From assembly GCA_944386175.1 (NCBI GenBank), contig CALXAB010000004.1, positions 900 through 64,899 of the forward strand: a stretch of DNA of 64,000 nt. The letters run 5' to 3'. This DNA comes from an uncultured Clostridia bacterium (GTDB lineage Bacteria > Bacillota > Clostridia > TANB77 > CAG-508). A program made the position numbers and the translations under genes. The notes beneath the pieces are model-generated. The model worked only from the letters and a program-made list of their open reading frames with translations, was not told the origin of the DNA and made no database searches. Position 1 is the first letter of the stretch. Every line of letters begins with the position of its first letter. Of the stretch, positions 3,881-33,958 are shown piece by piece.

Positions 3881-3956
<76 letters not shown>

Positions 3957-4811: not shown

Positions 4812-5318
4812 TTAAAATTTATTATCTTTTAACCAATCCAATAAAACTTCAAAATCGTCATAATGACTAGAAAAAAATTTATTTTCTTTCATTAATTTTT
4901 TAATTTCATCTGTTGAAAGCCAACAAACAAACTCAACTTCTGACTTTTGTAATCTCAAACTACTAATATCAAGAATATCCATTTTTAAATAATAAGAATC
5001 ACATATAACTCTAGATTTAGAAGATTTATTAGAAAAAAATAATTTAATATCTTTATTACTTATATCTAATCCAAGTTCTTCTTGAACTTCTGTTATAGCA
5101 CCTTCAATACTAGTTTGACCAGATTTAGGATGACCACCAGTAGTTGCAAACTTCCCATTTTTTAATTTACTTCTTTTTTGAATTAAAAACTTTCCATCAG
5201 AATTTTGAATAAATATCAAAACAACAATAATATAATAGCCTTTAGGTATAGGGAAATTTTTAAAAATTGTTTTACCAGTTAAATTCCTATTTACATCATA
5301 TAAATCTCTTTTTTCCAT
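4812..5318 (-). CDS. NUDIX hydrolase
   Basis: AAGGAG RBS before MEKRDLYDV; Nudix box GGHPKSGQTSIEGAITEVQEELGL. Confidence 0.75.
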   Translation of the reverse strand: MEKRDLYDVNRNLTGKTIFKNFPIPKGYYIIVVLIFIQNSDGKFLIQKRSKLKNGKFATTGGHPKSGQTSIEGAITEVQEELGLDISNKDIKLFFSNKSSKSRVICDSYYLKMDILDISSLRLQKSEVEFVCWLSTDEIKKLMKENKFFSSHYDDFEVLLDWLKDNKF

Positions 5319-5492: not shown

Positions 5493-8400
5493 TTGTTAAA
5501 AACAAGAAAATGTGATAAAATAGAACAAAATGAAAAAAACAGGAGTAAAAAATTGGATAAAAATATAATATACGACAATGATAATTTAATAAAAAATATA
5601 AACAAAAATCTAAAAATACTTTCAAAAAAACAAGTAAATATAGTAAATGATAAATTAACATTATCAGTTTTTGAACTATTAAAAGACAATATAAAAAAAG
5701 TATCTGACATAAATTTTGTTATTAGAAGTCCAATATACAATGGTAATAAAGAAATAGCAAGAGAATTTGAAATAGAAAAAGATACAGACAATATACTTTT
5801 CAACTCATTTGATATAATACAAAAAAACAAGTTAACACATTTAAGCTCAGCAAAAAAAATGTACAATTTTATAAAAGATAATGTTAATGTAAAAAGGGTA
5901 AAAAACTCAAATACAATAAAAAGTAATTTGCTAACAGTAGGTAATAATTATGCAGTACTTGGGGATTCATCTTTAGAAGTAGTAAAAAAGAAAGAACAAT
6001 CTTTTAACTTTAACACAGAATTTTCAAATATTGAACAAGTTAAGCAAATAAAAGAAAAATTTGACATGTTATGGAATACACCTCAATATACGGAAGAGTT
6101 TAAAGAACAATTATTAGAAAAATTAAAATTTGTTTATAAAGATTATAGCCCAGAGTTTTTATATTATTTTACTCTATTTTCAATATTTGAAAATACAATA
6201 AATGATGAAGACTTAGAAAAATTTGAGAATGATAAAATTAAGTTTAAAGAAACTATAGTATGGAATAAATTATATAAATTCCAAAAAGATGCAGTTGTTT
6301 CAGCCATTAATAAAATAGAAAAATTCAATGGATGTATTATAGCAGATAGTGTAGGGTTAGGAAAAACTTTTGAAGCATTAGCAATAATTAAATATTACGA
6401 AATGAAAAATTCAAAAGTTTTAGTATTGACACCTAAAAAATTATATGAAAATTGGGCTACATATAAAAACGATTATATTGATAACCCAATTGCAGAGGAT
6501 AGACTACATTATGATATTTTATATCATAGTGATTTATCAAGAAAAAAAGGTAAAACAATTGAAGGTAAAGACTTAGAGAGGATGAATCTAGGTAATTATG
6601 AATTATTAGTAATAGATGAAAGCCATAATTTTAGAAACAGAGATGCTAGAAAAGCTCATGAAACAAGATATTCTAAATTAATAAATGAAATAATAAAAAA
6701 GGGGTATAGAACAAAAGTATTATTATTATCAGCAACACCAGTAAATAATACATTAAATGATTTAAAAAACCAATTAAGTATCATAACAGTTGATAATGAT
6801 CATGCATTTATAGATGAAGGTATTGCAAGTGTAGAACAACTACTTCGAAAATCTCAAACGGTTATAAATGAATGGTCAAGAGAAGACAATAAAAATAAAG
6901 AAAAACTGCTAGATAGGTTACCAGCTAACTTTTTTAAACTGTTAGAAATGATAACAATAGCTAGAAGTAGAAAACATATAACTACATATTATGGAACAAA
7001 AGATGTTGGAACATTTCCAGAAAAAAAAGAGCCATTAACAATAAGGAATAAAATAGATACTAAAAATGAAATGGTAACATTTAAAGAAATAAATGACTTA
7101 TTAGATATGCTAAATTTATCAATATATTCTCCAATGAAATATATATTACCAGAATATAAACAAGAATATAGACAAAAGTTTAGTCTTGATGTAAAAGAAG
7201 GAAGTTCAACATTTTATCAAGAAGATAGAGAAGAAAGCATAAAAAAGTTATATAAATTTAATATTTTAAAAAGGATGGAAAGTTCTTTAGTAGCACTAAA
7301 TTTAACATTGCAAAGACTAAAAGAACAAATTGAAAATAGAAAAAAATTATTACAGGAATCAGTAAAAGAAAAAAATAAAATTAATAAAATAAAAGAATAT
7401 ATTGAAGATATAGATATTGAAGAAGAAGAAAACGAATTAGATGAAGAAGAAAATGTAAAAAACATAAATATATCACATTTAGATAAATCAACATATATTT
7501 ATGATTTAAATAAAGATCTAGAATTGATTAATCCAATATTAGAAGAAATAGATGTATTATTAAAAGAAAAAAGAGACGAAAAGATTAAAAAGTTAAAAGA
7601 AATAATAGTAAACAAAGTAACTAATACACCATATAACAATAAAAATAAAAAAATATTGATTTTTAGTGCTTTTGCTGATACAGTAAAATACCTATATAAA
7701 GAATTAAGTATAGAGTTAAAAGAAAAATATAAAGTAGATTCAGCTATTATTACAGGAAGTGAAGAACCAAAAACAACTAATAAAAAAGTAAAAAATGAAT
7801 TTAATAATATATTAGCACATTTTTCACCAATATCTAAAGAGATACAAATAAATGAAGATGAGCAAATTGATATTATTTTTGCAACAGATTGTATTTCAGA
7901 AGGTCAAAATCTTCAAGATTGTGATACTGTTATTAATTTTGACATACATTGGAATCCTGTTAGGTTAATCCAGAGATTTGGACGTATAGATAGAATAGGA
8001 AGCAAAAATAAGTTTATAAAAATGATTAATTTTTTTCCAGATATGGAACTAAATGAATATTTAAACCTGGAAAGAAGAGTTAAGGGAAAAATGGTAATTA
8101 CAAATATGACAGGAGCGGGAGATGATGATCAATTATCACCAGATATGAATGACTTTAATTTTAGAAAAAAACAATTAGAATCAATACAAAAAGAAGTTGT
8201 GGATTTAGAAGAAGCCAAAAATTCAATATCATTAACCGACTTAAATCTAAATGATTATAAATATGATATCAAAGAATACCTAAAAACAAATGAAGACATA
8301 AAAAAAATACCAAAAGGAATTTACTCTATAACATCTAATGGAGACAAAAAAGGGGTAATCTTTTGTTTCAAAAGAAATGAACAATTAGAAGTAAAACCAA

Positions 8401-8747
8401 AAGAAGAAAGTTCAATAGATCCTTATTATTTAGTATATGTAACAAATGAAGGAGACATTTATTTTGATATAAAAAAAGTAAGAGACGTTCTTAATGAATA
8501 CAGAAAAATATGTTATGGAAAACAAGAAATAAATCATGAATTAGTCAACAAATTTAACATTGATACAAAGGAAGCAACAGATATGAAAAAATATTCGGAG
8601 CTTTTAACCAAAGCTATTAATTTTATCAATGGAGATTTGAAAGAAGATAATATGCATAGTTTATTTAGTTTTGACGGTTTACTAAGTAAAAATGAAGAAA
8701 CAACATCAGAAGACTTTGAGCTTATATCAATGTTAATATTAGATTAG
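5493..8747 (+). CDS. SNF2-family (SWI2/SNF2) helicase; first gene of a four-gene R-M/defence operon. The start is uncertain: TTG at 5493, or an internal TTG after AGGAG.
   Basis: Helicase motifs ADSVGLGKT (I), VIDESHNFRN (II), LLLSATPVNN (III), ATDCISEGQNLQ, and NPVRLIQRFGRIDRIGS (VI). Confidence 0.85.
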   Translation: MLKTRKCDKIEQNEKNRSKKLDKNIIYDNDNLIKNINKNLKILSKKQVNIVNDKLTLSVFELLKDNIKKVSDINFVIRSPIYNGNKEIAREFEIEKDTDNILFNSFDIIQKNKLTHLSSAKKMYNFIKDNVNVKRVKNSNTIKSNLLTVGNNYAVLGDSSLEVVKKKEQSFNFNTEFSNIEQVKQIKEKFDMLWNTPQYTEEFKEQLLEKLKFVYKDYSPEFLYYFTLFSIFENTINDEDLEKFENDKIKFKETIVWNKLYKFQKDAVVSAINKIEKFNGCIIADSVGLGKTFEALAIIKYYEMKNSKVLVLTPKKLYENWATYKNDYIDNPIAEDRLHYDILYHSDLSRKKGKTIEGKDLERMNLGNYELLVIDESHNFRNRDARKAHETRYSKLINEIIKKGYRTKVLLLSATPVNNTLNDLKNQLSIITVDNDHAFIDEGIASVEQLLRKSQTVINEWSREDNKNKEKLLDRLPANFFKLLEMITIARSRKHITTYYGTKDVGTFPEKKEPLTIRNKIDTKNEMVTFKEINDLLDMLNLSIYSPMKYILPEYKQEYRQKFSLDVKEGSSTFYQEDREESIKKLYKFNILKRMESSLVALNLTLQRLKEQIENRKKLLQESVKEKNKINKIKEYIEDIDIEEEENELDEEENVKNINISHLDKSTYIYDLNKDLELINPILEEIDVLLKEKRDEKIKKLKEIIVNKVTNTPYNNKNKKILIFSAFADTVKYLYKELSIELKEKYKVDSAIITGSEEPKTTNKKVKNEFNNILAHFSPISKEIQINEDEQIDIIFATDCISEGQNLQDCDTVINFDIHWNPVRLIQRFGRIDRIGSKNKFIKMINFFPDMELNEYLNLERRVKGKMVITNMTGAGDDDQLSPDMNDFNFRKKQLESIQKEVVDLEEAKNSISLTDLNLNDYKYDIKEYLKTNEDIKKIPKGIYSITSNGDKKGVIFCFKRNEQLEVKPKEESSIDPYYLVYVTNEGDIYFDIKKVRDVLNEYRKICYGKQEINHELVNKFNIDTKEATDMKKYSELLTKAINFINGDLKEDNMHSLFSFDGLLSKNEETTSEDFELISMLILD

Positions 8748-9484: not shown

Positions 9485-11467
9485 ATGGGACAAAAATTTA
9501 TTAGTAAGGAAATAGAAGGAATAAAAGAAAGTAATTTAGAAAAATTAAAATTATTATTTCCAAGCGTATTTAAAGATGGACAAGTAGATTTTGAAGAATT
9601 AAAGAATCAGTTAGGAATTTTTGAAGAAGTAGAACAAGAAAAATATGAATTCAACTGGGTAGGAAAACAAGAGGCTAAACAAAATGCTATTAGCACAATT
9701 AGTGGAGTAACTATAAAATATTATCCAGAAGAAAGTAAAAATAATGATACTACAGAAAACTTATATATAGAAGGAGATAATTTAAAAGTTTTAAAATTAT
9801 TAAGAAATAATTATGCTAATAAAATAAAAATGATTTATATAGATCCTCCATACAATACAGGAAATGATACATTTGTATATCCAGATAGTTTTAAAAAATC
9901 AGACAAAGAAATTAAAGAGGATATTGGAATTACAAATGATGGTGAAAAAGTAATAAATGTACTAAAAGATAATATGTACAAAAATACAAAAGATTCAAAT
10001 AAATACCATTCAACTTGGCTTTCAATGATGTATTCTAGATTAAAAATTGCACAAGAACTACTAGCAGAAGATGGTGTTATTTTTATATCAATTGATGATA
10101 ATGAGCAAGAAAATTTGAAAAAAATATGTAATGAAATATTTGGAGAAGAGAACTTTATTGGTTGCGCTGGAAGAATAACTAAAAAAAGTAATAACAAAGG
10201 AGATTTTTGGGCTCCAAATTTCGATTATATACTTACTTATACAAAGGTTAGAGAATGTGCTAATCCATTTTTAGGAGGAACAAACGAAAAAGCATATAAT
10301 TTAATAGAAACAGAAGGCAAACGTAAAGGTGAACGTTATCAACTAGTTAGATTATATATGTCAACATTACAAAATAGAAATCCAGAACAAAGATTCTGGA
10401 TAGATTGTCCAGATGGTAGCAAAATAATACCTCCAGGAACAACATTCCCACCAGAAAGACCGAATTTAGGAGATGGAATATGGAGATGGACAAGAAAGAA
10501 ATTTGAAGAAGAAAAAGATAAAATAGTAATAAAAGAAGTGCAATCATCTAATTTGATAAATGAAAATTTTGAGCCTGCTAAATGGAATGTATATACAAAA
10601 ACATACTTAAATGATGTAATCAATAATTCTACAGCTAAACCAAATAGTTTCATAGAAGATCATATAAACCAAATTGGATCTCATGAATTAAGAAATTTAG
10701 ATATACCTTTTGACTACTCAAAACCAACAACTCTAATAAAATATCTTATGAAAATTGCTAAAATAGATAAAGATGCAATTGTTATGGACTTTTTCTCGGG
10801 TTCTGCAACAACAGCAGATGCAGTTTTTCAGTTAAATGCTGAAGATAATGGGAATAGAAAATTCATAATGGTGCAAATACCAGAATTATGTGACGAAAAT
10901 TCAGAAGCATATAAAGCAGGTTACAAAAATATCTGTGAAATTGGAAAAGAAAGAATTCGCAGAGCAGGAGATAAAGTAAAAAAGGAAACAAATGCAGAAA
11001 TAGACTATGGATTTAAAGTTTTTAAACTAGATGAAACAAATATAAATTGGGAAAAAGAAGAATATAAGAAAAATATAGATGACTATATATTAAGGAATGG
11101 ATTTATTGACGAAAAACAAAGAGAAAGCCTAATGAAAGATTTTGTAGATGGAGCTAAAGATATAGATATAGTTTATGAAATATTATTAAGATATTATGGT
11201 ATGCCACTATCAGCCAAAATTGAAAAATTAACTGACATAGGAGAAAGGGTATATAGTGTAGGAGGAGTAATCATAATATGTTTAGAAGATATAGTAACAA
11301 ATGAAATTATAGATAAATTATCAAATACAAATTTTGCAAAATTATATTTTCGTGATAGTAGTTTTAAGGGAGAAAATAGTTTAGAATTAAAGCAAAATTT
11401 AATGACAAGACTGAATTTAAAAAAAGAATATAAAGATGAAAAAACATATAAAGTAGAATTTATTTAA
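9485..11467 (+). CDS. mod: Type III-like DNA methyltransferase (Mod, N6-adenine/N4-cytosine, beta-class motif order)
   Basis: IYIDPPYNTG (motif IV) precedes VMDFFSGSATTADA (motif I); AGGAGG RBS. Confidence 0.85.
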   Translation: MGQKFISKEIEGIKESNLEKLKLLFPSVFKDGQVDFEELKNQLGIFEEVEQEKYEFNWVGKQEAKQNAISTISGVTIKYYPEESKNNDTTENLYIEGDNLKVLKLLRNNYANKIKMIYIDPPYNTGNDTFVYPDSFKKSDKEIKEDIGITNDGEKVINVLKDNMYKNTKDSNKYHSTWLSMMYSRLKIAQELLAEDGVIFISIDDNEQENLKKICNEIFGEENFIGCAGRITKKSNNKGDFWAPNFDYILTYTKVRECANPFLGGTNEKAYNLIETEGKRKGERYQLVRLYMSTLQNRNPEQRFWIDCPDGSKIIPPGTTFPPERPNLGDGIWRWTRKKFEEEKDKIVIKEVQSSNLINENFEPAKWNVYTKTYLNDVINNSTAKPNSFIEDHINQIGSHELRNLDIPFDYSKPTTLIKYLMKIAKIDKDAIVMDFFSGSATTADAVFQLNAEDNGNRKFIMVQIPELCDENSEAYKAGYKNICEIGKERIRRAGDKVKKETNAEIDYGFKVFKLDETNINWEKEEYKKNIDDYILRNGFIDEKQRESLMKDFVDGAKDIDIVYEILLRYYGMPLSAKIEKLTDIGERVYSVGGVIIICLEDIVTNEIIDKLSNTNFAKLYFRDSSFKGENSLELKQNLMTRLNLKKEYKDEKTYKVEFI

Positions 11468-11485: not shown

Positions 11486-14400
11486 GTGAAAACGTGGAAA
11501 TTTGATCCAAATTTAAAGTATCAAAAAGATGCTATAAACGCTGTATTAGATTTATTTGAAGGACAAAATAAAATTAGTGACACTAATACAATTAGATATT
11601 ATAGAAATGAATTAAACATTCCAAGAAGTAAGATAGCAGAAAACTTAATGAAAATTCAAAAAAATCCAGTTAATAATGTAGGATACTGGGATGATGAGCT
11701 ATTACCAGATAATAAATTTACTATAGAAATGGAAACAGGAACAGGAAAGACATATGTATATCTTAGAACTATTTTAGAATTATATACTAAATATGGATTT
11801 TCAAAATTTATTTTAGTAGTACCATCTATACCAATTAGAATGGGAGTAGAAAAAACAATTATGCAATTAAGAGAACATTTTATGAGTTTATATAATGGCT
11901 TAGATATTGCTAATTGTTACTTTGTATATGATTCTAAAAAAACAATAAATAAATTAAATTTATTCACACAGCTAGGTGGATTAAAAATAGCTATAATGAA
12001 TTATCAAGCATTTGACAAATCTACAAATAAAATAAAAAATAGAAAAGAAGATGGCAAAATATATTGGGAAGAAATAAGAAAAACAAATCCAATAGTAATA
12101 ATAGATGAACCACAAAAAATAATAGGAGCAGGTAATAAAAAAAGTAAAGCATTAAAATCTATAGAAGAATTAAAACCAATGGCAACATTTATGTATTCTG
12201 CTACACATACAAATTATTATAATTTAATATATAAATTAGATTCTTTTGATGCATTTAAAAAACATTTAGTAAAGCAGATAAGAGTATCAACAATATATAG
12301 TGAAGTTGATAGAAACTATCCTTATTTTAAATATATAAAATTTAACAAGGATTTATCTGCAACTATAGAAATATTAAAAAACGAAAATGGTGGAATAAAA
12401 ATCAGACAATTAAGAATAGATAGACCATGTGATTTATATGAAAAAACAGGGCTAGAACAATATAAAGAATTTAAAATTCTTAATGCACCACATAAGTTTA
12501 AAGGAATAAATACAAACTTTTATAAAGAAGTAGTAAATGAGCAATATTCATTCAAAGAAGGTGAAAGTAATTATAATCTTTATGAAGATGAAATGGCAAG
12601 AATTCAAATGAAAATTACAATAAAAAAACATCTAGATAAACAAATAGAATTGTTAAAAGAAAATGTGAAAGTATTAAGCTTATTTTTTATTGACGAAGTA
12701 AACAAATATAGAGATTATAATAATGAAAATACAAAAGGAATTTATGCTAAAATGTTTGAAGAAACATATAACGAAATAATTAATACTGACATTAGATATA
12801 TAGAATTAGTAAATAAAATGCCAAGCTTAGCAAATCCAGCAAAAGTTCATGAAGGATATTTTGCAATAGATAAAAATAAAAAAATATTAATGGATGAAAA
12901 GGCATATATATCTAAAAGTGAAAAAACTATGGGAGATATCCAAAGAGGAATAAAGAAAATTCTTGATGGAAAAGAAAAATTAATTCAGCTAGATGAACCA
13001 ATATCATTTATATTTGCACATTCAGCATTATCAGAAGGGTGGGATAATCCTAATGTATTTCAATTATGTTTTTTAAGACAAACAAAATCAGAAATTAGAA
13101 AAAAACAAGAAATTGGAAGAGGTTTAAGACTTGCTCGTGGTAGTGGAGAAAATAGTGATATAAAAAGAGATGAAAATATAAATCAACTAACAGTAATAGC
13201 AAATGAAAATTATGAAGAATTTGCAAAATCATTGCAAAAAGAATTTAATGAAGAAAACAAATATAACAAAGAATCAATTACAATCGAAGATACAAAACAA
13301 ATTCAATTACTTATAGAAAATAAAATAGGAAGAAATTTAAATAATGATTTCTTTATAAAATTACATAGAGAATTGATTAATGGGGGATTTATAAAAGTCA
13401 AAAACAACATTATTGACAAAACGAAAATAAAAAAAGTAGAAGACTATTATTTTGAAGATAGAGAATTGAATGACAACAGAGATAGAATTTTAGAAGCACT
13501 TAAAAAAGTAATGACAGAGAAAGAAAGTAATATAATAGAAAAATATCTAATTAATGATGATGAAATGATTCAAAATAATTGGCAAACATATATATCAGAT
13601 AATGATTTTCAAGAAATGATATTAGAGTTAGAAGAAAAATTAAATAAAAAAACAGTATATCAAATAAAATATGATGAACAAGATTTAATTAATAATATAA
13701 TATGTTCCGCATCACAAAATATAAGGAATTTTGATCAAGAAGTAATTGAAAAAAATGGGATTTTGCAGGGAGAAAATAGACAAAAGGGTGTAACTATACA
13801 AGAAGATCCTTCTAAAAATCAAATACATAAAATAGAAGAAAAATTACCAATAACAAAATCTTTTGTAGATATTATTAATTATATTGTAAATAAAACTAAT
13901 TTTACAAGACAAAGCATTATTAAAATAATAACACAATTAAGAAATCCTAGTTTATTGCAAAGACAGGATAATGTAGATATTTTAATTAAAGTAATAAAAG
14001 AGCAAAAAATAAAAGAATGTTATAAGAATATAAAGAATATAACATATACTGTAATTAATGAAAGCAATAACTTAAATGCAAGTAATATGTTTTTAATTAA
14101 TGAAGTATCATCGAAAAAAATAGGAGAAACAATATTTGAGACTAAAGTAAGTAAAAGAAAAGCTTTATGCAAATACTATGTAACAGACAGTGAAGGGGAA
14201 TATACCTTTGCACAGGAATTAGAAAAAGATGAGGATGTGTTGATGTATTCTAAATTAAAAAAAGGAAGTATTGTTATTGAAAATCCTATAGAAAATTATT
14301 CTCCAGATTGGGTAGTAGTTTGTAAAGGAAAAGAAGAAAAAAGAAGAAAATATTTAATTATAGAAACAAAATGGGATAAAAAATGGGAAGATTTATCAGA

Positions 14401-14563
14401 AAAAGAACAAACTAAAATAATATGTGCTAAAAAACATTTTGAAGCAATTAATAATGATATAGAATATAGCGTAATAAATTCAATAGATGGAGAAAATCTT
14501 CAAAATGATGAATATATGAATAATTGGAAAATGTTTAAGGAAAAAATAATAAAAAAATTATAA
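11486..14563 (+). CDS. res: Type III restriction enzyme Res subunit (helicase plus C-terminal PD-(D/E)xK nuclease)
   Basis: GTG start after GGAG; METGTGKTYVY (Walker A), VIIDEPQK (DExx), SALSEGWDNPNVF, QEIGRGLRL; C-terminal SPDW...LIIETKWD nuclease motif. Confidence 0.85.
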   Translation: MKTWKFDPNLKYQKDAINAVLDLFEGQNKISDTNTIRYYRNELNIPRSKIAENLMKIQKNPVNNVGYWDDELLPDNKFTIEMETGTGKTYVYLRTILELYTKYGFSKFILVVPSIPIRMGVEKTIMQLREHFMSLYNGLDIANCYFVYDSKKTINKLNLFTQLGGLKIAIMNYQAFDKSTNKIKNRKEDGKIYWEEIRKTNPIVIIDEPQKIIGAGNKKSKALKSIEELKPMATFMYSATHTNYYNLIYKLDSFDAFKKHLVKQIRVSTIYSEVDRNYPYFKYIKFNKDLSATIEILKNENGGIKIRQLRIDRPCDLYEKTGLEQYKEFKILNAPHKFKGINTNFYKEVVNEQYSFKEGESNYNLYEDEMARIQMKITIKKHLDKQIELLKENVKVLSLFFIDEVNKYRDYNNENTKGIYAKMFEETYNEIINTDIRYIELVNKMPSLANPAKVHEGYFAIDKNKKILMDEKAYISKSEKTMGDIQRGIKKILDGKEKLIQLDEPISFIFAHSALSEGWDNPNVFQLCFLRQTKSEIRKKQEIGRGLRLARGSGENSDIKRDENINQLTVIANENYEEFAKSLQKEFNEENKYNKESITIEDTKQIQLLIENKIGRNLNNDFFIKLHRELINGGFIKVKNNIIDKTKIKKVEDYYFEDRELNDNRDRILEALKKVMTEKESNIIEKYLINDDEMIQNNWQTYISDNDFQEMILELEEKLNKKTVYQIKYDEQDLINNIICSASQNIRNFDQEVIEKNGILQGENRQKGVTIQEDPSKNQIHKIEEKLPITKSFVDIINYIVNKTNFTRQSIIKIITQLRNPSLLQRQDNVDILIKVIKEQKIKECYKNIKNITYTVINESNNLNASNMFLINEVSSKKIGETIFETKVSKRKALCKYYVTDSEGEYTFAQELEKDEDVLMYSKLKKGSIVIENPIENYSPDWVVVCKGKEEKRRKYLIIETKWDKKWEDLSEKEQTKIICAKKHFEAINNDIEYSVINSIDGENLQNDEYMNNWKMFKEKIIKKL

Positions 14564-16037: not shown

Positions 16038-17571
16038 TTACTTTGACCAATATTTTCTATCCAAGTTTCTATATTGAATTGCTTCTGCTAAATGGGGAGT
16101 TTCTATATTAGTAGAATTATCAAGATCTGCAATAGTTCTAGCTACTTTTAAAATTCTACTATAAGCTCTAGCACTTAACCCAAGGGTATTGAAAGCAGTT
16201 TCTAAAATTTTCTTACTACTATTAGAAAGTTTACAATATTTAGAAATTAAACTTGGAGTTAACTCAGAATTAGAAAAGATATTATAACTATTATATCTAT
16301 CTAATTGAATATTTCTAGCCATATTCACTCTTTTTCTTATATCAATCGAGGCTTCAGAATTAGTATCATTTTCTAATTTTTGATACTTAACACTCTCTAC
16401 TTCAATATGAATATCTATTCTATCTAAAAGAGGGCCACTTATTCTATGTATATATTTCTGGATTTGTTCTTGGCTACATGTACACTGTTTATCATTAGAT
16501 CCATAATAACCACAAGGACAGGGGTTCATACTAGCAATAAATATGAAATTAGAAGGATAAGTAATAGACGAGTTAATTCTACTAATAGTTACAAATTTAT
16601 CTTCTAAAGGGCCTCGTAAAACTTCTAAAGTAGACTTTTTAAATTCAGGTAATTCATCTAAAAATAGAACGCCGTAATGAGCCAAACTAATTTCACCGAG
16701 GTTTAGGAATTCTACCTCCGCCAACTAATGATGTTTCAGTAATAGTATGGTGAGGGCTTCTAAAAGGTCTTTTAAATATGAATGGAATATCTTCAGAAAG
16801 AAGACCAGAAACACTATGAATTTTAGTTATTTCTAAGGCTTCTTCGAAAGTTAAATCAGGTAAAATACTAGGAAGGCGTCTAGCTAACATAGTTTTACCA
16901 GATCCAGGACTACCAATTAAAAGACAGTTATGACCGCCAGCAGCTGAGATTTCTAATGCTCTTTTAACATTTTCTTGACCTTTTACTTCAGAAAAATCAA
17001 AATTATAGGAAGAATTAACATTTGAAAAAAAGTCAATATTTTTTTCTTTAGGAATAGAAATATGACCATTTAGATAATTGATTACTTCATTTAAACTAGA
17101 AACAGGAATAATTTCAATATCAGTAATTATTGAAACCTCTTTAGCATTACCCTTAGGTAAAACAATTCTTTTAATCCCCAAATTCTTGGCCTCTATACAA
17201 ATAGGTAAAGCACCTTTTATAGTCTCGATAGAGCCATCCAAAGAAAGCTCACCCATAAAAATAGTATTATCTAAAGAAACATTAGAAACAATATTACTAG
17301 CAATTAAAATTCCAACAGCAATTGGCAAATCAAAAATAGAACCTTCTTTTCGTGTATTGGCAGGAGCTAAATTAACAACGATTTTCCTGCTTAAAAATTC
17401 AAAAGTAGAATTCCTAATAGCAGTTTTAACCCTTTCTTTTGATTCTTTAATGCTAGTATCAGGCAAACCAACAATTTCAAAAGATGGCATACCAGAAGAA
17501 ACATCAACTTGAATATTCACTAAATAACCTTGCAATCCATGCAAAGCAATACTTTTAACAATAGATAACAT
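16038..17571 (-). pseudogene. comM: comM/yifB Mg-chelatase-like competence ATPase, broken by a 1-nt insertion at about 16696
   Basis: The N-terminal ORF ends ..LVGGGRIPKPR*. The next frame continues GEISLAHYGVLFLDELPEF. On the minus strand the sequence reads CCT AAA CCT C GGT GAA. Walker A is GSPGSGKT. Confidence 0.85.
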
Positions 17572-17833
17572 ATAATCCTTTCTACTTATATAATAAAAAA
17601 TTGGTAAAAATAGAATAAAAACTATTAAATATAAATTATATAAGATTAAAAATAGTTGAATAAAAAATTTATTAGTGTGAGTATATATAATCAGAAAGCG
17701 TTTGTCAATACTTTTAAAAAAAATTTTTAATTTAAATAAAAATATTATTCACAGTGATATAACAAACGCAAATAAAAAACTAACTTAAAAAAATTAGAAT
17801 CCAATAACATTAATTAATTTAAACACATATAAA

Positions 17834-18019
17834 CTAAAATTTCTCTAAAAATTTTTGAAAAAACTTATTTTTAATTTTATCTTTAAACTTTAATTTTAAA
17901 AATAAAATAATTCCACATATAATAAATAAGACAGAAACAGATATCAATAATATAATTAATTGATTAACTTGTTCTTCTTTGGGTAATGAGATTAAATAAA
18001 TCCAATAATTTGCAAACAT
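17834..18019 (-). CDS. small (61 aa) single-pass membrane protein, hypothetical
   Basis: ORF track; hydrophobic core LIILLISVSVLFIICGIILFL and a basic tail. Confidence 0.35.
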   Translation of the reverse strand: MFANYWIYLISLPKEEQVNQLIILLISVSVLFIICGIILFLKLKFKDKIKNKFFQKFLEKF

Positions 18020-18177
18020 ATATTATTCCACCTTTTAATACTAATAATATCATATATGGAATATTTTACCAGAATAAAAAATACAAGTCAATACAATATG
18101 TTTAAAATAATGTAAAAAATACAAAATCTGTTACGATTAACAAGTAGGGATATACTTACTTATTAATCGTAACAATA

Positions 18178-18534
18178 TTATCTATTTCTTAATGATAGAG
18201 TTAAAGTTTTAATGATATCAATATAGGAAATAAGTTCTTTACTAGTAAATTTTTTTAGATATTTTTTAGTTTCAGAAATAACACTATCATCAAGACCAAA
18301 TAAAATATAATCAGAGGAATGACCACTTAAATCCATAAGTTTTTTAATACTTTTATATACTAAATTACCATTACCAGCCTCAACCAAACCCAAAAATTGT
18401 CCAGATACTCCAATCTCTTTAGCTAATTGAGTTTTATTCATTTTTAATTCATTTTCTCGAATATATTTAATTCTCTTACCTCTTTCAATTCGTTCAATAT
18501 TTTCTAAATCTAATTTATCATTATTAGCAATCAT
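18178..18534 (-). CDS. XRE-family HTH transcriptional regulator
   Basis: MNKTQLAKEIGVSGQFLGLVEAGNGN helix-turn-helix; GGAGGGG RBS. Confidence 0.75.
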   Translation of the reverse strand: MIANNDKLDLENIERIERGKRIKYIRENELKMNKTQLAKEIGVSGQFLGLVEAGNGNLVYKSIKKLMDLSGHSSDYILFGLDDSVISETKKYLKKFTSKELISYIDIIKTLTLSLRNR

Positions 18535-18662
18535 ACTTACCCCTCCATCTCAATACTAAATATATTTTACAATATAAAAAATACAAAAAAATAGTAAAAA
18601 AATTATAAAAATATAGAGAAAAATAGGGAAATATGGTATATTATGAAAAAGGAGGAATAAAA

Positions 18663-19445
18663 ATGAAACCAATGAAAATATTGATAATAGAAGATGATAT
18701 AAATGAATGTAATAATTTTATTAAAGCAATCAAAAATAGAGAAGATATAGAATTAGTCAAAATAACAGATTCTGATATTAAAGGATTAAATTATGTTAAA
18801 ACACTCCATCCAGAAGGAATAGTATTAGATATAGAATTAAATAACAGTACAACTGGAAATACAAATTCATTAGGATTTATGGATAGTTTAAAAAAGTTAA
18901 ATCTTAATTATCATCCAGTAGTTATTGTAACAACTCATATATACTCAAAAAGAACATATGATAAACTACATGCTAGTGGTGTTGATTTAATATTATATAA
19001 AAAACATCCTAAATATTCATGTGAACAAGTATTAAATAATTTTATAAGTTTAAGAGAAATGACACCTAAGAAAACAGTTGAAACGTTAGAAGAAGAATTA
19101 AAAGATGAGGAAAGCAAAATTTCTGATTATATAAATAATGAATTAGAGTTAATTGGAATCAGTTCTAAATTAAAAGGTAGGAGATATGCCCATGATGCAA
19201 TATTATATTTAATACAAAATGATGGAAAAGATGTAAATCCAACGAAATATTTAACTAAAATATATAATAAACCAGAAACAACAATTACAAATGGAATACA
19301 AAATGCTATAATTCATGCTTGGAAATATACTGCTTTAGAAGATTTATTAGAACATTATAAAGGAGTGATAAATGCTGGTAGAGGTATGCCAACAGTTATG
19401 GAATTGATATATTATTATGCAAGGAAAATAAAAAGTATGTTGTAA
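18663..19445 (+). CDS. response regulator with a receiver domain and a Spo0A-C-like DNA-binding domain (Spo0A paralogue, not bona fide spo0A)
   Basis: AAGGAGG RBS before MKPMKILIIEDD. Receiver residues are present: DD, VLDIEL, VTTH, LYKKH. The C-terminus LIGISSKLKGRRYAHDAILYLIQND..TTITNGIQNAIIHAW..GRGMPTVMELIYYYARKI parallels Spo0A IGVPAHIKGYxYLREAI..TASRVERAIRHAIEVAW..KPTNSEFIAMxADKL. Confidence 0.65.
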   Translation: MKPMKILIIEDDINECNNFIKAIKNREDIELVKITDSDIKGLNYVKTLHPEGIVLDIELNNSTTGNTNSLGFMDSLKKLNLNYHPVVIVTTHIYSKRTYDKLHASGVDLILYKKHPKYSCEQVLNNFISLREMTPKKTVETLEEELKDEESKISDYINNELELIGISSKLKGRRYAHDAILYLIQNDGKDVNPTKYLTKIYNKPETTITNGIQNAIIHAWKYTALEDLLEHYKGVINAGRGMPTVMELIYYYARKIKSML

Positions 19446-19480
19446 CTTTGGAGTTCTAAAATATAAATGAATAAAAAGTA

Positions 19481-19530
19481 AAATAGTAGGAATTTTCTAA
19501 TTAAGAAAATTTGACCTACTATTTTTTTTA
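19481..19530 (+). terminator. rho-independent terminator after the response regulator gene
   Basis: AAATAGTAGGAATTTTCT..AGAAAATTTGACCTACTATTT hairpin followed by a T-run. Confidence 0.7.
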
Positions 19531-19634
19531 ATTTTTTGCCATTTTTTTCTATCAATAAATACCGTTTATTCATAACGAATAGATGGTATTTTTTGCTTGT
19601 ACTAAAGGTAAAAAAAGAAAAGGTGGTGATAGTA

Positions 19635-19679
19635 ATGTTTGATTTACTACTAGCTTGGATAAGAAAATGGGCTGGATAA
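19635..19679 (+). CDS. 14-codon ORF MFDLLLAWIRKWAG; candidate signalling or leader peptide
   Basis: AAAGGTGGTGA Shine-Dalgarno 5-7 nt upstream of the ATG; sits alone between a terminator and a second hairpin, directly upstream of the 7-TM kinase. Confidence 0.35.
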   Translation: MFDLLLAWIRKWAG

Positions 19680-19704
19680 AAAACTGCAAAATATATAGTA
19701 TAGT

Positions 19705-19762
19705 AAAGAAGATAGTCAATTCTATAAGTGTATAGAAATAATTTATATTGATTATCTTTTTT
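19705..19762 (+). terminator. compound hairpin (16-bp outer stem with 2 G-U pairs, plus an inner hairpin) ending in a T-run; terminator or attenuator after the mini-ORF
   Basis: AAAGAAGATAGTCAAT ... ATTGATTATCTTTTTT; inner TTCTATA-AGTG-TATAGAA. Confidence 0.4.
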
Positions 19763-19776
19763 CTATAATATATAAT
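19748..19776 (+). promoter_or_regulatory. sigma-A-type promoter for the kinase gene
   Basis: TTGATT, 17-nt spacer, TATAAT; the -35 box lies in the 3' arm of the preceding hairpin. Confidence 0.4.
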
Positions 19777-19789
19777 ATTGGCATAAAAA

Positions 19790-21298
19790 ATGGAGGAGAA
19801 AAATTTGCCAATAGAAAGTGATTTAATAAATATAAATGATATAAATATACAAATTTATGTATTAAAATTATTTTTTATTAGTATGTGTACATATTTTTTA
19901 TTAATAAAAATTACTAATACCACTAAGAAAAAGAATACATTTTTAGTATCAATGTTAATATTCATCATAGTATCAATATCAAGCATAATAAAATATGAAA
20001 CAAATTCATTTATAGGTATAGCATGTTTGATTATATTGTTAAGTCTTATAGCTTCTAAACACATAAATAATGGTATAGGATTTACTATGCTAGGAATTAT
20101 TATCTCACTTAGCATAAATTATATTATATTTTTTATAGCTATAATAATCAGTTTTATACCAAATATTATTCTAAAAATAAATAATGATTATACAAGTTTA
20201 TTGGTTTTAGTAATCATACATAGTTTAATATTATATATGCTATTTAAAGTAGAAAAGATAAAATATGGTTTTTCCTTTTTAAGATATAATTCAAAAAATG
20301 AATTTATAGAAATAGTAATTCTTAATATTAGCATTATAATAATATTTTCATTTATTATATTTACAAATATGAATATAGAACTATCAAGAAACATATTTTT
20401 TGGATTTATTATTTTTTCAATACTAATGTTTATCACAATCCAAAAATCATTACAACTATATTACAAGCAAGAGTTATTAAAACGAAATATAGAAGAAAAG
20501 GAAAAAGAAGTAAAAAATAAAAACAAAGAACTCCAAGAAAAAGACAAAAAACTAGAAGAATTAGAAAAAGAAAATCTAAAACTAAATAAAAAAATACACT
20601 CAATAAATCACAGGCAAGACTCACTAGAATACAAACTAGATACCTTAACACAAAAAAGTGAAATATCAGAAGAAATAGACATAAGAGACAGAATAAACAA
20701 AATATCAAAAACAATAGAAGAAGATGAAATAGCAATAGAGCTAACAAAAACAAACATAGAAATAATTGATGATATGTTAAAATACATGCAAGCAAAATGC
20801 ACAAAAGATAATATAGATTTTGACTTAAAAATAAATGGGAATATAAAAAATATGACAAAAAATATTGTATCAAAAGAAGATTTAGAGATATTAATATCAG
20901 ACTTAATAAAAAATGCTATAATAGCAATAAACTATTCAAACAACATTAATAAAAGTATACTAGTAAGGCTAGGAATAATAGATGGCATTTACAGTTTATA
21001 CGTATATGATACAGGTATTGAATTTAAAATAGAAACCTTATTAAATCTAGGAATAAAACCAAGTACAACACATGCAGATAATGGAGGAACAGGCATGGGA
21101 TTTATGAATACTTTTGATACATTAAATAAATACAAAGCAAGCATAATTATTAAAGAATATGGAAAAGAAAGTAAAGATAATTATACAAAAGCAATAATAA
21201 TAAAATTTGACAAAAACAATAATTACAAAATTAATTCATATCGTTCAGATAAAATAAAAGAAAAAGAGCCTAAAAACATAATTATAGAAAAATTATAA
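19790..21298 (+). CDS. membrane sensor histidine kinase: about 7 TM helices, a coiled coil and a GHKL ATPase (AgrC/ComD-like architecture). The start may instead be the TTG at 19804.
   Basis: Seven hydrophobic segments in aa 20-215; coiled coil KEKEVKNKNKELQEKDKKLEELEKENLKL; candidate H-box IHSINHRQDS; N-box LIKNAIIAI; G1 VYDTGIEF; G2 GGTGMGFMN. Confidence 0.75.
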   Translation: MEEKNLPIESDLININDINIQIYVLKLFFISMCTYFLLIKITNTTKKKNTFLVSMLIFIIVSISSIIKYETNSFIGIACLIILLSLIASKHINNGIGFTMLGIIISLSINYIIFFIAIIISFIPNIILKINNDYTSLLVLVIIHSLILYMLFKVEKIKYGFSFLRYNSKNEFIEIVILNISIIIIFSFIIFTNMNIELSRNIFFGFIIFSILMFITIQKSLQLYYKQELLKRNIEEKEKEVKNKNKELQEKDKKLEELEKENLKLNKKIHSINHRQDSLEYKLDTLTQKSEISEEIDIRDRINKISKTIEEDEIAIELTKTNIEIIDDMLKYMQAKCTKDNIDFDLKINGNIKNMTKNIVSKEDLEILISDLIKNAIIAINYSNNINKSILVRLGIIDGIYSLYVYDTGIEFKIETLLNLGIKPSTTHADNGGTGMGFMNTFDTLNKYKASIIIKEYGKESKDNYTKAIIIKFDKNNNYKINSYRSDKIKEKEPKNIIIEKL

Positions 21299-26339: not shown

Positions 26340-26960
26340 GAATAAAAGGCAAATTTTAGTATAATATTTAACGATGGTGCATTATTCTAGTCATACAAGT
26401 TTTACGAGGGTGGGGCTAAAAATCCACTAAAGGGCATATCGTTGAAGTTCTTTGAATGTGCGCGAAACGCCAAGTTTGTGTGTGTTCAGGGAGTAAGAAA
26501 TTTGGGTATTATATAATGGCATATATAAGATTCCCTGGTTTCGCGGAGGCTTAGATTTATGATAAATGAATCTTTTTATACATAATTTAAGAGTAACCTG
26601 TGATGAGTGCCAAGACACAAAAAGCACAGAGTAGCCTGTCTTGAGTGAATGTATTGGGATTAAATCATTAGTAAAATATAGTTTTGGCCAAATTAGTTTT
26701 ACTGTACTTATGAAATTTCATTTGCAAAAGAGACTAGTAAAACACAACTGTATGTAAAGGAAAACTTCTAGAATGTTTGTTTCGAAAGAGACATAGGAGT
26801 CTGGGGATTAAGGTACAGATTTAAGTGGCGATCTGGTGTCTATTAAAACTAATAGATATTTTCCTTAAACGGAAACGGCTCTAACAGTAATGTTAAGTGG
26901 AAAATAGAGAAATTCGACTAGACCTAAACTGTAAAATTTACTTAGGCTTTTACCATCTAG
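26340..26960 (+). ncRNA. large structured non-coding RNA, candidate OLE RNA (ends approximate)
   Basis: About 600 nt with no credible ORF and locally higher G+C. Long-range helices CGCGAAAC/GTTTCGCG and CAGGGAG/TTCCCTG; GAAA-tetraloop hairpin TGTTTC-GAAA-GAGACA; hairpin TCTATTA-AAAC-TAATAGA. A 4-TM protein gene follows directly on the same strand. Confidence 0.45.
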
Positions 26961-27099
26961 TTTCGTTTTTATATAAAATATTTTAAAATAAAAAATTAAA
27001 ATGTAATAAAAGGCAAGATAAAGATAAATTTTAAATGACAAATATATCAATATAATTACTAGACAATTATAAAAAGGCAAGGAGGAAGATAAATTAAGA

Positions 27100-27654
27100 A
27101 TGAAAGAAAAAAAGGACAATAAAAAAGAACACTCGGAACTCAATTGGTTTATAAAAGTATCAATTATGACATTTATACTATCAATCACATTTTCATATAT
27201 ATCAGCTAATGGAGTTTCAAATTTAAATTTGATATCTGCTATATTAATACTAATATTAGTAATAGCAATAGGTATCTTTTTTGATATAGTAGGAGTAGCA
27301 GTAACAGTAGCAAACGAAGAAGAATTCCATGCAAAAGCAACAAAAAAAGTAAAAGGCTCAAAAAACTCAATCAAATTAATTAGAAATGCACCTAAAGTAG
27401 CTAATATATGCGCAGATGTTATAGGAGACATATGTGGAGTATTAAGTGGTGCAATAAGTGCTTTAATTTCTGTAAAAATAACAGAACAATTTAGTTTATC
27501 TTTTGATATACAATTTATACTTAGTGCAGTTGTAGCCTCATTAACAGTAGGAGGAAAAGCACTAGGAAAAGGAATAGCAAACAAAAATGCAACACGAATT
27601 GTTCATGCAGTAGGAAAAACTTTTACAATTTTAGGGACGCGTCCAAAAAGATAA
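27100..27654 (+). CDS. 4-TM ~20 kDa membrane protein, candidate OapA (OLE-associated protein A)
   Basis: AAGGAGGA RBS; four hydrophobic helices with DIVGVAV and DVIGDICG. The last 10 codons and the stop lie in a palindromic repeat copy. Confidence 0.55.
   Translation: MKEKKDNKKEHSELNWFIKVSIMTFILSITFSYISANGVSNLNLISAILILILVIAIGIFFDIVGVAVTVANEEEFHAKATKKVKGSKNSIKLIRNAPKVANICADVIGDICGVLSGAISALISVKITEQFSLSFDIQFILSAVVASLTVGGKALGKGIANKNATRIVHAVGKTFTILGTRPKR
27623..27654. repeat. GC-cored palindromic repeat, copy 3 (inverted orientation)
   Basis: TTACAATTTTAGGGACGCGTCCAAAAAGATAA. Confidence 0.8.
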
Positions 27655-32582: not shown

Positions 32583-33191
32583 TTGCAAAATTCATTTTAT
32601 AAAGATTCAATAGTCTTATTAGAAGGAGTAATAGCAGAAATAATGGCAAGACTAGATATAATAAGAAAATACAAAATAGTACATAATGATAGAGACCCAA
32701 TAGAATACATAACAAGTAGAGTAAAAACAGAAGAAAGCACAAAAGAAAAATTAAAAAGAAAAAAGTTACAAGTTAATTTAGAAACAGCATTAACAAAAAT
32801 TTATGATGTAGCAGGAATACGAATAATATGTGCATACATAGATGATGTATATAGTGTAGTAAAAATGTTAAAACAATTTAAAGACTTAAAAATTTTAAAA
32901 GAAAAAGACTATATAAAAAATCCTAAACCAAATGGATATAGAAGCTATCATATAGTATTTCAAGTGCCATTAGATATAGCAGGACAAATGCATCCAGTAA
33001 ATATTGAAATACAAATAAGAACAATTGCCATGGATTTTTGGGCAAGCTTAGAACATGAAATGAAATACAAAAAAAATATAAAAAACCAAAAAATGATAGG
33101 AGAAGAACTAAAAAGATGTGCAGATGAAATAGCCACAACAGATATAAATATGCAAGCAATAAGAAATATGATAAATGGCAAAGAACAGTAA
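32583..33191 (+). CDS. small alarmone synthetase (RelQ/RelP-type GTP pyrophosphokinase); start uncertain (TTG)
   Basis: DPIEYITSRVK, DVAGIRIICAYIDD, GYRSYHIVF, IEIQIRTIAMDFWASLEH. Confidence 0.8.
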   Translation: MQNSFYKDSIVLLEGVIAEIMARLDIIRKYKIVHNDRDPIEYITSRVKTEESTKEKLKRKKLQVNLETALTKIYDVAGIRIICAYIDDVYSVVKMLKQFKDLKILKEKDYIKNPKPNGYRSYHIVFQVPLDIAGQMHPVNIEIQIRTIAMDFWASLEHEMKYKKNIKNQKMIGEELKRCADEIATTDINMQAIRNMINGKEQ

Positions 33192-33274
33192 TGAAAAATT
33201 AAAAAGCATATAAAAAGGTACAAGAGGTTATAGGTGAATCCTATATAAAAACCTAAATATAATATAAAAGGAAA

Positions 33275-33958
33275 GTGATAAACTTGAAAGAAAAATTAAA
33301 AATATTATTAGCAGATGATGAAAAGGAATTATCAAGAGCAATTGCTACAATTTTAAAATATAGCAATTATGAAGTAGATATAGTATTTAATGGAAAAGAA
33401 GCAATAGACAAAGTAAAAGAAAATATATATGATTTAATAATATTAGATGTAATGATGCCAGTAATGGACGGAATACAAGCACTAAAAGAAATAAGAAAAG
33501 ATAATATAAAAACACCCATAATGTTATTAACAGCCAAGGCACAAATTGATGATAAAGTAGAAGGGCTAGACTCAGGCGCAAATGATTATTTGACAAAACC
33601 ATTTGATAAAAAAGAACTATTAGCAAGAATAAGAGCATTAACAAGAGAGCAAGAAGAAAATAAAGAAAAATATAAAATAGGTAATATAACATTTAATAAA
33701 GAAACATCAGAAATATCAAATAAAAATACATCATTACATTTAAATAATAAAGAATGTGAAATAATGGAATTTTTAGTAAAAAATCAAGAAAGAAATATAA
33801 CTAAAAAAGAATTAAAAAAACGTATATGGGTAAAAGAAAATAAAGACGAAAATATCGTAACAATGTATATATCATACTTACAAGAAAAATTTTTAGCATT
33901 AGGAGCAAACATAAAAATAAATGATAAAAATGGATATGTTTTGGAGAAAATATTATGA
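33275..33958 (+). CDS. OmpR-family response regulator
   Basis: ILLADDE, ILDVMMP, LTAK receiver; winged-helix C-terminus. Confidence 0.85.
   Translation: MINLKEKLKILLADDEKELSRAIATILKYSNYEVDIVFNGKEAIDKVKENIYDLIILDVMMPVMDGIQALKEIRKDNIKTPIMLLTAKAQIDDKVEGLDSGANDYLTKPFDKKELLARIRALTREQEENKEKYKIGNITFNKETSEISNKNTSLHLNNKECEIMEFLVKNQERNITKKELKKRIWVKENKDENIVTMYISYLQEKFLALGANIKINDKNGYVLEKIL

Follow-up and report, generated by a model that had tools for sequence, protein, structure and literature searches.

We analysed a 64,000-nucleotide (nt) stretch of DNA from an uncultured Clostridia bacterium (contig CALXAB010000004.1), hereafter called the window, i.e., the whole stretch at its full length, which has a G+C content of about 24%. 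Positions refer to the window unless a related locus is named. The subject is a two-component signalling module that consists of a response regulator gene (18663-19445, plus strand), a very short ORF (open reading frame) for a candidate signalling peptide (19635-19679) and a membrane histidine kinase gene (19790-21298, plus strand). The short ORF lies in the 344-bp gap between the other two genes. For comparison, we collected 99 related loci (L001 and following), mostly with the label human gut, from metagenome-assembled genomes (MAGs) and metagenomes. In 75 of these, the downstream sequence is long enough to judge gene order, and 61 of the 75 have regulator, peptide gene and kinase side by side. 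The original prediction, made from the letters of the window alone, had listed four ORFs at the module, and all four are found where it placed them.

The regulator has 260 amino acids (aa), and its start codon (ATG, 18663) is preceded by the ribosome-binding site AAGGAGGA. Residues 157-256 match the Pfam profile Spo0A_C (PF08769) over its whole length (positions 1-104 of 104; 41.7 bits with a cut-off of 25; E 1.2e-10). The N-terminal receiver domain scores 22.8 bits, i.e., under its cut-off of 30.2 (E 1e-4). Within it, E10, D11, D12, D56 (in VLDIEL), T90/T91 and K113 are invariant across 57 regulator homologues, so the receiver domain is complete as had been claimed. The Spo0A-type nature of the C-terminal half, first proposed from three motif matches found by eye, is likewise borne out: besides the full-length Spo0A_C match, the three matches recur in the HMMER alignment of the regulator to PDB entry 1FC3. 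A profile of these homologues, searched against PDB sequences, matches 1LQ1 and 1FC3, both structures of the Spo0A C-domain (E about 2e-6), without a match to any further type of DNA-binding protein, i.e., no unrelated helix-turn-helix (HTH) family competes for this domain. An AlphaFold2 (AF2) model of the regulator (pLDDT, the predicted local distance difference test, of 81) has six helices in the C-terminal domain. A Foldseek search with the full-length model was dominated by receiver-domain matches, a result that does not address the C-terminal domain.

Judged by its sequence, the regulator is a bona fide Spo0A_C-domain protein that is not Spo0A in the strict sense. The second half of this statement follows from its score against TIGR02875 (the NCBIfam equivalog model of Spo0A), which is 58.9 bits and thus below the cut-off of 200, and from its changed recognition helix; the original prediction had also held that this is not the genuine spo0A. 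The match to TIGR02875 runs end to end, with residues 3-256 spanning model positions 2-255 of 262. In the alignment to 1FC3, the recognition helix reads TTITNGIQNAIIHAW in the regulator versus ASRVERAIRHAIEVAW in Spo0A, such that most positions differ, and the regulator's version is kept as such within its family. The residues with which the Spo0A helix contacts DNA (SRVERAIRHAIEVAW, reading the 0A box TGNCGAA) are not matched. According to the paper on 1LQ1, the base-contacting residues of this helix are reportedly E, R and R; the regulator has T, N and Q. Canonical Spo0A is an orphan regulator without an adjacent cognate kinase and usually lies in a spoIVB/recN context. The regulator studied here has its kinase 344 bp downstream, no spoIVB or recN around it, and comM, dprA and a UDPGP gene as neighbours. 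The closest match of the window in the genome collections is a MAG labelled 'uncultured Clostridium sp.', whose regulator is 97% identical.

The kinase has 502 aa when read from the ATG at 19790. Gene callers choose the TTG at 19805 (497 aa), which follows the ribosome-binding site GGAGGAG and is probably the true start. A sensor with seven transmembrane (TM) helices covers residues 1 to about 212 (to about nt 20425), and a GHKL ATPase domain covers residues 324-500. The sequence shows seven hydrophobic segments, and the AF2 model (pLDDT 77) contains seven TM helices followed by an alpha/beta ATPase domain. In this model, the last TM helix extends unbroken to residue 290 (helix 196-290) and bears H270, whose codon is at 20597-20599. 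Among 91 kinase homologues, H270, D407xG409 (G1) and G432-G437 (G2) are invariant, and N375 is conserved in at least 90%. A phosphorylatable histidine is thus present throughout the alignment. Foldseek relates the cytoplasmic part to the dimerization/phosphotransfer and catalytic (DHp-CA) regions of HK853, DesK, KinB and others (E 1e-4 to 1e-3). From this set of residues and folds, an active histidine kinase is plausible.

Its family assignment is less ordinary. Pfam matches to HATPase_c are weak. HATPase_c_5, which marks the HPK10 class, has no match in the window kinase and weak matches in 2 of the 91 homologues, and no HisKA-type domain was found in any of them. The kinase profile against PDB sequences gave a marginal match to the ATP lid of KinB only (E 0.04). 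An exhaustive profile search of 1.84 billion representatives returned 1409 relatives (707 at E <=1e-30), i.e., the profile does not reach other kinase families. By these searches, the kinase belongs to no described kinase family at the sequence level, and its own family appears large but closed, not shading into ordinary kinases. The former description as an AgrC-like kinase therefore holds for the architecture (seven TMs, long helix, ATPase) and fails for family membership. Likewise, of the three domains that had been named for a profile search, Spo0A_C exceeds its cut-off, the receiver stays below it and HATPase_c_5 is not matched. For contrast, the window also holds an OmpR-type two-component pair, preceded by a RelA/SpoT-type small alarmone synthetase gene (together 32583-35166), and the kinase of that pair matches HisKA, HATPase_c and HATPase_c_5.

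In the gap between regulator and kinase, the strong ribosome-binding site GGTGGTG (19622-19628) precedes a 14-codon ORF (19635-19679; the feature as a whole is 19622-19679, plus strand) that encodes MFDLLLAWIRKWAG. The former statement that there is no agrD-like gene was thus misleading, while its companion, the absence of agrB, is correct for the module and its surroundings. An ORF of 13-20 codons with the same GGTGGTG-type ribosome-binding site is found at the same position in 61/61 regulator-kinase loci, which together encode 29 distinct peptides. These follow approximately the pattern M-x-W-[YWF]-[DE]-x-[FL]-x-x-W-phi-x-[KRY]-W-x(1-3) with a conserved W-x3-W, and the pattern persists where the regulators are only 46-49% identical to that of the window (L010, L011). 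Each peptide has two to six Trp residues, and the Trp codons of the ORF are spaced rather than tandem. Cys occurs in just 2 of the 29 peptides, so no thiolactone is expected. For 16/24 peptides, the helical hydrophobic moment is within the top 5% of their own shuffles, i.e., they are amphipathic. The locus L007, whose regulator is 85% identical to that of the window, encodes the same peptide, and both nucleotide differences between the two peptide genes are synonymous. L006, which is important below, encodes MGNWYEELMKWLKEWLT instead of MFDLLLAWIRKWAG. The locus L099 has an additional, partial peptide unit at 5000-5081: another ribosome-binding site and approximately 8 initial peptide codons (MNWYEDF...) abut the leader box and hairpin of the intact peptide gene. 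This partial unit looks like a remnant of tandem duplication or allele replacement.

The peptide ORF is embedded in a set of signals. 3' of the regulator gene, a terminator-like hairpin with T-run is found (19482-19533, plus strand; -16.8 kcal/mol, z -4.3 vs. shuffles). It is followed by the leader box CCATTTTTTTCTATCA (19539-19554, plus strand), a candidate promoter or regulator-binding region that most of 38 distinct loci retain in register. In relatives, T-rich boxes with a period of 10-11 bp precede the leader box or the hairpin next to it. The exact 16-mer has no second copy in the window and is confined to the peptide leader among the fetched loci. We had considered defining a regulon via further copies of the leader motif and dropped this, since neither the window nor the fetched flanks hold any.

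Next to the leader box, about 25 nt 5' of the peptide's ribosome-binding site, lies a conserved RNA hairpin with U-run (19557-19597, plus strand; -17.9 kcal/mol, z -6.9), which also scored as terminator-like. It is supported by covariation: 82% of cells are paired compared to 40-55% in slid controls, and 43 double-change cells are observed where 17 are expected, a value reached by 0/500 shuffles. A G.U pair persists in 20/24 sequences, an indication of an RNA on the plus strand. An Rfam scan of the gap gave no match even at E values up to 1.

A further terminator-like hairpin with T-run is located right 3' of the peptide ORF (19706-19762, plus strand; folding energy of the segment 19680-19804, -27.8 kcal/mol, z -5.0). 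Such a hairpin and T-run just past the peptide's stop codon could be recognised in at least 26 of the 34 distinct spacers between peptide gene and kinase. The kinase has a promoter of sigma-70 type, TTGATT-N17-TATAAT (19748-19776, plus strand; 10/12 consensus matches), with its -35 hexamer inside the 3' arm of this hairpin, and TTGNNN-N16-18-TATAAT is present in 34/34 spacers. Given a terminator-like hairpin after the peptide ORF and a separate kinase promoter, the peptide gene appears to be a small transcription unit of its own, such that regulator, peptide and kinase apparently form three units. Classical attenuation by a Trp leader peptide was also considered and rejected: the conserved hairpin is 5' of the ORF, the 3' hairpin is followed by a separate promoter and the Trp codons are not in tandem.

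We also inspected the leaders for 0A boxes. Exact copies of TTCGNCA, the reverse complement of TGNCGAA, are found 5' of the peptide gene in 6/38 distinct loci. In few relatives (L001, L012 and 4 others), they stand in tandem at 10-bp spacing. The peptide leader of the window has no exact copy and a single relaxed one (TTTGCCA). With exact boxes in just 6 of 38 leaders, 0A boxes are only a weak candidate for the regulator's site; together with the T-rich boxes they are a lead for autoregulation, no more.

The central observation concerns how this region varies between close relatives. We compared the window with L006 and find about 95% nucleotide identity over 17765-19560, 47-68% over 19564-20420 and 90-100% beyond. 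Three strain pairs (L021/L024, L051/L052 and L056/L066) show flanks that are 99-100% identical around the same interval, over which identity is 21-77%. That is, in four independent pairs the drop in identity begins exactly at the peptide gene, extends over the spacer and the kinase TM domain and stops at or close to the end of that domain. Together, these parts form a hypervariable cassette between conserved flanks (19564-20420, plus strand). Its breakpoints vary by pair, with one behind TM5 and one in a different pair behind TM7, which argues for mosaic recombination of old alleles and not for local mutation. Within one species-level cluster, 9 modules carry 8 peptide alleles.

Peptide and sensor vary together. 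This was quantified on 182 module pairs with regulators that are >=93% identical. Where the peptides are identical, the kinase TM domains are 97-100% identical and the cytoplasmic parts 99% on average. For peptides with 80-99% identity, the mean drops to 59% for the TM domain and stays at 99% for the cytoplasmic part. When the peptides are less than 50% identical, the TM domains reach only 24-38% while the mean of the cytoplasmic part is 88%. Over the whole set, the Spearman correlation between peptide identity and TM-domain identity is 0.95. Since many loci come from few abundant species, locus counts overstate independence, and the four strain pairs and 29 peptide types are the fairer measure. 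By analogy, this cassette pattern is the signature that defines agr specificity groups and comQXP pherotypes. The former proposal of a peptide-responsive two-component system is thereby better supported than before, i.e., via a conserved peptide gene that co-varies with the kinase sensor.

Both protein families are large. For the regulator family we count 1177 significant 90%-identity clusters and for the kinase family 2452 significant clusters among the 8000 candidates scored. The sampled members are all metagenomic or from MAGs, carry the labels 'Clostridia bacterium' or 'uncultured Clostridium sp.' and come mainly from the human gut. In the databases, the proteins are named 'response regulator', 'Spo0A C-terminal domain-containing protein', 'signal transduction histidine kinase', 'hypothetical protein' or not at all. 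No cultured carrier was found among the family matches and no relative among the viral contigs of IMG/VR.

The original prediction had suggested that the module may be accessory. In L012-L015, where the kinases are about 55-56% identical to that of the window, the module is accompanied by comM, dprA, UPF0102, UDPGP, Metallophos, HD and tmk genes as in the window, with the comM-dprA block on the opposite side and in reversed orientation. Because a similar, rearranged neighbourhood recurs across species, we take the module to be chromosomal and vertically inherited rather than accessory. An origin from a mobile element or phage was rejected on the same observation and on the lack of relatives in IMG/VR. 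In the window, comM (16038-17571, minus strand) is split into two ORFs that overlap by 32 nt (292 aa, and 228 aa from the first TTG or 215 aa according to the gene caller). It is in three pieces in L012-L015 (L012: 12651-14197). A pseudogene shared by the whole lineage, or a site of recoding, might explain the split.

Two further genes had been described as flanking the regulator-kinase pair, and both are present. The first encodes an XRE/Cro-type HTH protein of 118 aa, divergent from the regulator (18178-18534, minus strand), with a weak match to HTH_3 (22.1 bits, E 1.6e-4). A homologue accompanies 36/59 modules; it is divergent and 5' of the regulator in 27 and lies on the minus strand between regulator and peptide gene in 9. 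It was not found in 23 modules of one species group. The second encodes a small single-TM protein of 61 aa (17834-18019, minus strand) without significant Pfam match, which is a clade-restricted neighbour: tblastn finds a homologue at the same position in 14/57 modules, and a 61-aa gene is also present in L012-L014. In L001 (8961-9965; also in L002 and L003), a 334-aa gene with a SocA/Panacea domain (toxin-antitoxin-like) is located between the regulator gene and the peptide leader, and the peptide-kinase unit is intact. Orphan members of the regulator family are found beside Coat_F and M23 peptidase genes in L088 (3992-6509) and beside a Hydrolase_2 gene of SleB/CwlJ type in L038 (3995-5627). 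This suggests that the clade has, or recently had, sporulation genes.

Elsewhere in the window, we observe a full-length OLE (ornate large extremophilic) RNA at 26358-26972 (plus strand; Rfam RF01071, 343 bits, model positions 1-616 of 616). The 184-aa ORF 3' of it (27100-27654) has no Pfam match and might encode an OLE-associated protein. A tyrosine integrase gene (2550-3515) adjoins a tRNA-Met gene (3881-3956). A defence-type block follows, extends to 14563 and comprises a SNF2-family helicase (5493-8747), DUF4391, an N6/N4 methyltransferase (9485-11467) and a ResIII/endonuclease gene (11486-14563); L001 likewise has a methyltransferase and ResIII pair near its module. The segment 50297-56671 contains a truncated-looking radical-SAM ORF (197 aa), two large serine recombinases (51479-53041 and 53097-54770), an AAA_14/DUF4143 ATPase and Amidase_3, and is probably an integrated element that interrupts a gene.

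In our reading, the module is a two-component cassette in which a peptide and its receptor signal by pherotype, and we consider this account probable, though by no means assured. The 14-codon gene (19635-19679) would be expressed as its own small transcript and yield a leaderless, amphipathic, Trp-rich peptide. The peptide would exit the cell or enter the membrane, and the kinase would detect it with its seven-helix sensor. The kinase, supplied from its own constitutive-looking promoter, would autophosphorylate at His270 and transfer the phosphate to Asp56 of the regulator, a step that we infer from the adjacency of the two genes in 61/75 informative loci. The Spo0A-type HTH domain of the regulator would then switch promoters on or off, perhaps including the conserved leader of the peptide gene, i.e., autoinduction. 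Since otherwise near-identical strains carry different alleles in which peptide and sensor change as one set, the signal would be specific to strain groups and would serve kin or pherotype discrimination in addition to cell-density sensing. Translation and export of the peptide, its binding to the sensor, phosphotransfer, autoinduction and the regulon are all steps that we infer.

Several points weigh against this account. All evidence is computational, and translation, export and sensing of the peptide are predictions only. No conserved gene for an exporter, a protease or a modifying enzyme was found in the modules of the window and the related loci; because the module encodes none, export of the peptide would need a general system. 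No convincing -10/-35 elements could be assigned to a peptide-gene promoter when the leader was inspected. For the hairpin at 19557-19597, a 5' stabiliser, an attenuator and a terminator are all conceivable roles. Furthermore, in 14 loci no kinase gene follows the regulator over at least 2.2 kb, and these kinase-less regulators form separate clusters that are 72-75% identical to the module regulators. The co-variation of peptide and sensor could reflect linkage in one recombining block: as the peptide gene and the sensor-coding DNA are physically adjacent, it is not independent proof of interaction. Finally, L051 and L052, which belong to one species, have peptides that differ at the last residue only (V/G), yet their kinase TM helices 1-5 are about 40% identical (peptide gene 5104-5154, kinase residues 1-157). 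Either one residue decides specificity, or the breakpoint lies inside the peptide gene, or the sensor diverges under another driver.

What else could the peptide and the variable sensor be? The peptide might be a cell-autonomous membrane modulator of its own kinase, similar to MgrB or SafA acting on PhoQ, in a feedback loop without secretion. It is too short to span the bilayer, amphipathic and without signal or leader sequence, no conserved exporter or processing gene is nearby, and such a partnership explains the adjacency as well as the match between peptide and sensor. On the other hand, an intracellular pair gives no obvious reason for the persistence of many ancient alleles in one species. 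The 8 alleles in 9 modules, and sensors that differ down to 24-38% identity beside flanks of 99-100%, form the pattern known from agr, comQXP and comCD, and we regard the modulator as unlikely. A different driver is assumed if the surface-exposed kinase TM domain diversifies as a receptor of phages or bacteriocins; the small ORF would then be a leader that hitch-hikes or couples translation and has no part in signalling. This agrees with hypervariability being centred on TM helices 1-5, with the V/G pair, in which a large sensor divergence accompanies a nearly unchanged peptide, and with the caveat of adjacency. It does not account for an ORF whose frame, ribosome-binding site, length class and amphipathic W-x3-W pattern are kept over 29 sequences, down to regulators that are 46-49% identical. 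A coupling leader is further at odds with a peptide gene that has its own terminator and a kinase that has its own promoter. We thus consider the receptor explanation very improbable.

The remaining alternatives concern the output of the pherotype cassette. The regulator could be the lineage's own, highly derived Spo0A orthologue, in which case the cassette would directly gate entry into sporulation. The end-to-end alignment with the TIGR02875 model fits this, as does the behaviour of the regulator as a vertically inherited core gene of its clade, and the Coat_F and SleB/CwlJ-type genes next to relatives point to spore genes in this clade. A search with a Bacillus subtilis Spo0A sequence found no canonical spo0A in the 64-kb window or the fetched flanks, which cover a small part of each genome. 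We nevertheless rate this orthology as rather improbable, given 58.9 instead of 200 bits, the missing spoIVB/recN context and a helix that is changed at DNA-contacting positions which are fully conserved from Bacillus to C. difficile (PMC3485338). Moreover, Spo0A paralogues are known in Clostridiales: 10 genomes with two copies and Anaerostipes hadrus with three have been counted, with no function assigned (preprint 10.1101/2022.02.25.481979). We are just as doubtful about the wider form of the idea, i.e., that the regulator is the lineage's only Spo0A-type protein, a re-tooled Spo0A, and that sporulation or a developmental programme in its place is gated by a strain-specific secreted peptide. 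The least probable option is the one put forward in the original prediction, in which the regulator binds canonical 0A boxes and feeds into, or competes at, Spo0A-controlled promoters. The Spo0A_C fold is shared and tandem TTCGNCA boxes at 10 bp occur in few relatives, but the recognition helix has diverged and exact boxes are restricted to 6/38 loci with none in the leader of the window, and the proposal is not supported.

We compared the module with known systems. It resembles agr (staphylococcal AgrB-AgrD-AgrC-AgrA and the clostridial agr-like systems) in that a small peptide gene stands beside genes for a polytopic (6-7 TM) kinase and a response regulator, and in the hypervariable block over peptide and kinase sensor with conserved cytoplasmic kinase and regulator parts. 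It differs from agr by the lack of AgrB, by a leaderless peptide of 13-20 aa instead of an AgrD of about 45 aa with ring closure via Cys/Ser, by a kinase that is not HPK10/HATPase_c_5, by Spo0A_C instead of LytTR output and by its order of regulator, peptide and kinase. With ComQXPA of Bacillus subtilis, it shares a variable signal (in the module, the candidate peptide) and N-terminal sensor next to a conserved regulator and kinase C-terminus, as well as a multi-TM kinase. The ComX signal has an essential, modified Trp, and the candidate peptides of the modules are Trp-rich. In contrast, no module examined has a gene for the isoprenyl transferase ComQ. The ComX precursor, of about 55 aa, is cleaved, and ComP and ComA are a HisKA_3 kinase and a regulator of NarL/LuxR type, respectively. 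The streptococcal systems ComCDE and BlpCHR are similar in their unmodified linear peptide (for the module, this modification state is a prediction), membrane kinase and allelic pherotypes; they differ in peptides with a double-glycine leader, a dedicated ABC exporter-protease, HPK10 kinases and LytTR regulators. MgrB and SafA are also very small products, and a comparable action on the kinase membrane domain is proposed here, but they have 47-65 aa and a TM helix and are not allelically hypervariable together with the kinase.

Spo0A, the master regulator needed to start sporulation, and its Clostridiales paralogues have the same two-domain architecture and length as the regulator, with Spo0A_C above the Pfam threshold, while the dedicated adjacent kinase sets the module apart from canonical Spo0A, which is fed by a phosphorelay or orphan kinases. 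Spo0A_C proteins without receiver are described from phages and mobile elements of gut Firmicutes (PMC10294663, PMC6907783). The module regulator differs from these by its intact receiver, its predicted cognate kinase and its chromosomal position. Spo0A_C has otherwise been treated as a unique marker of Spo0A (PMC6136694). In the literature searched, we found no description of the module or of a Spo0A_C regulator paired with such a kinase. The combination thus stands as undescribed there, as first supposed, and the family is large. By analogy, the comparison points to the logic of agr, comQXPA and comCDE being carried by different component families, i.e., the kinase is of a new family, the peptide is rich in Trp and lacks a leader, a gene for processing is absent and the output is of Spo0A type.

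The systems agr, comQXP and comCD serve as key models of social behaviour and of discrimination among kin in bacteria. To our knowledge, the known strain-specific peptide pheromone systems of this kind all come from cultured pathogens or Bacillus and use few component families. The cassette would add a large gut-associated family, whose kinases form at least 700 clusters when grouped at 50% identity (thousands at 90%) and are covered by no Pfam model. It would also be a natural experiment in the re-use of the Spo0A DNA-binding domain, and it implies that counts of Spo0A_C domains in metagenomes over-count Spo0A. If the doubtful idea of a re-tooled Spo0A were true, becoming dormant and being transmitted would depend on a social decision that is limited to the pherotype. 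Above all, the cassette would provide a testable case of within-species signal diversification in uncultured Clostridia of the human gut, with short synthetic peptides as a handle on their behaviour.

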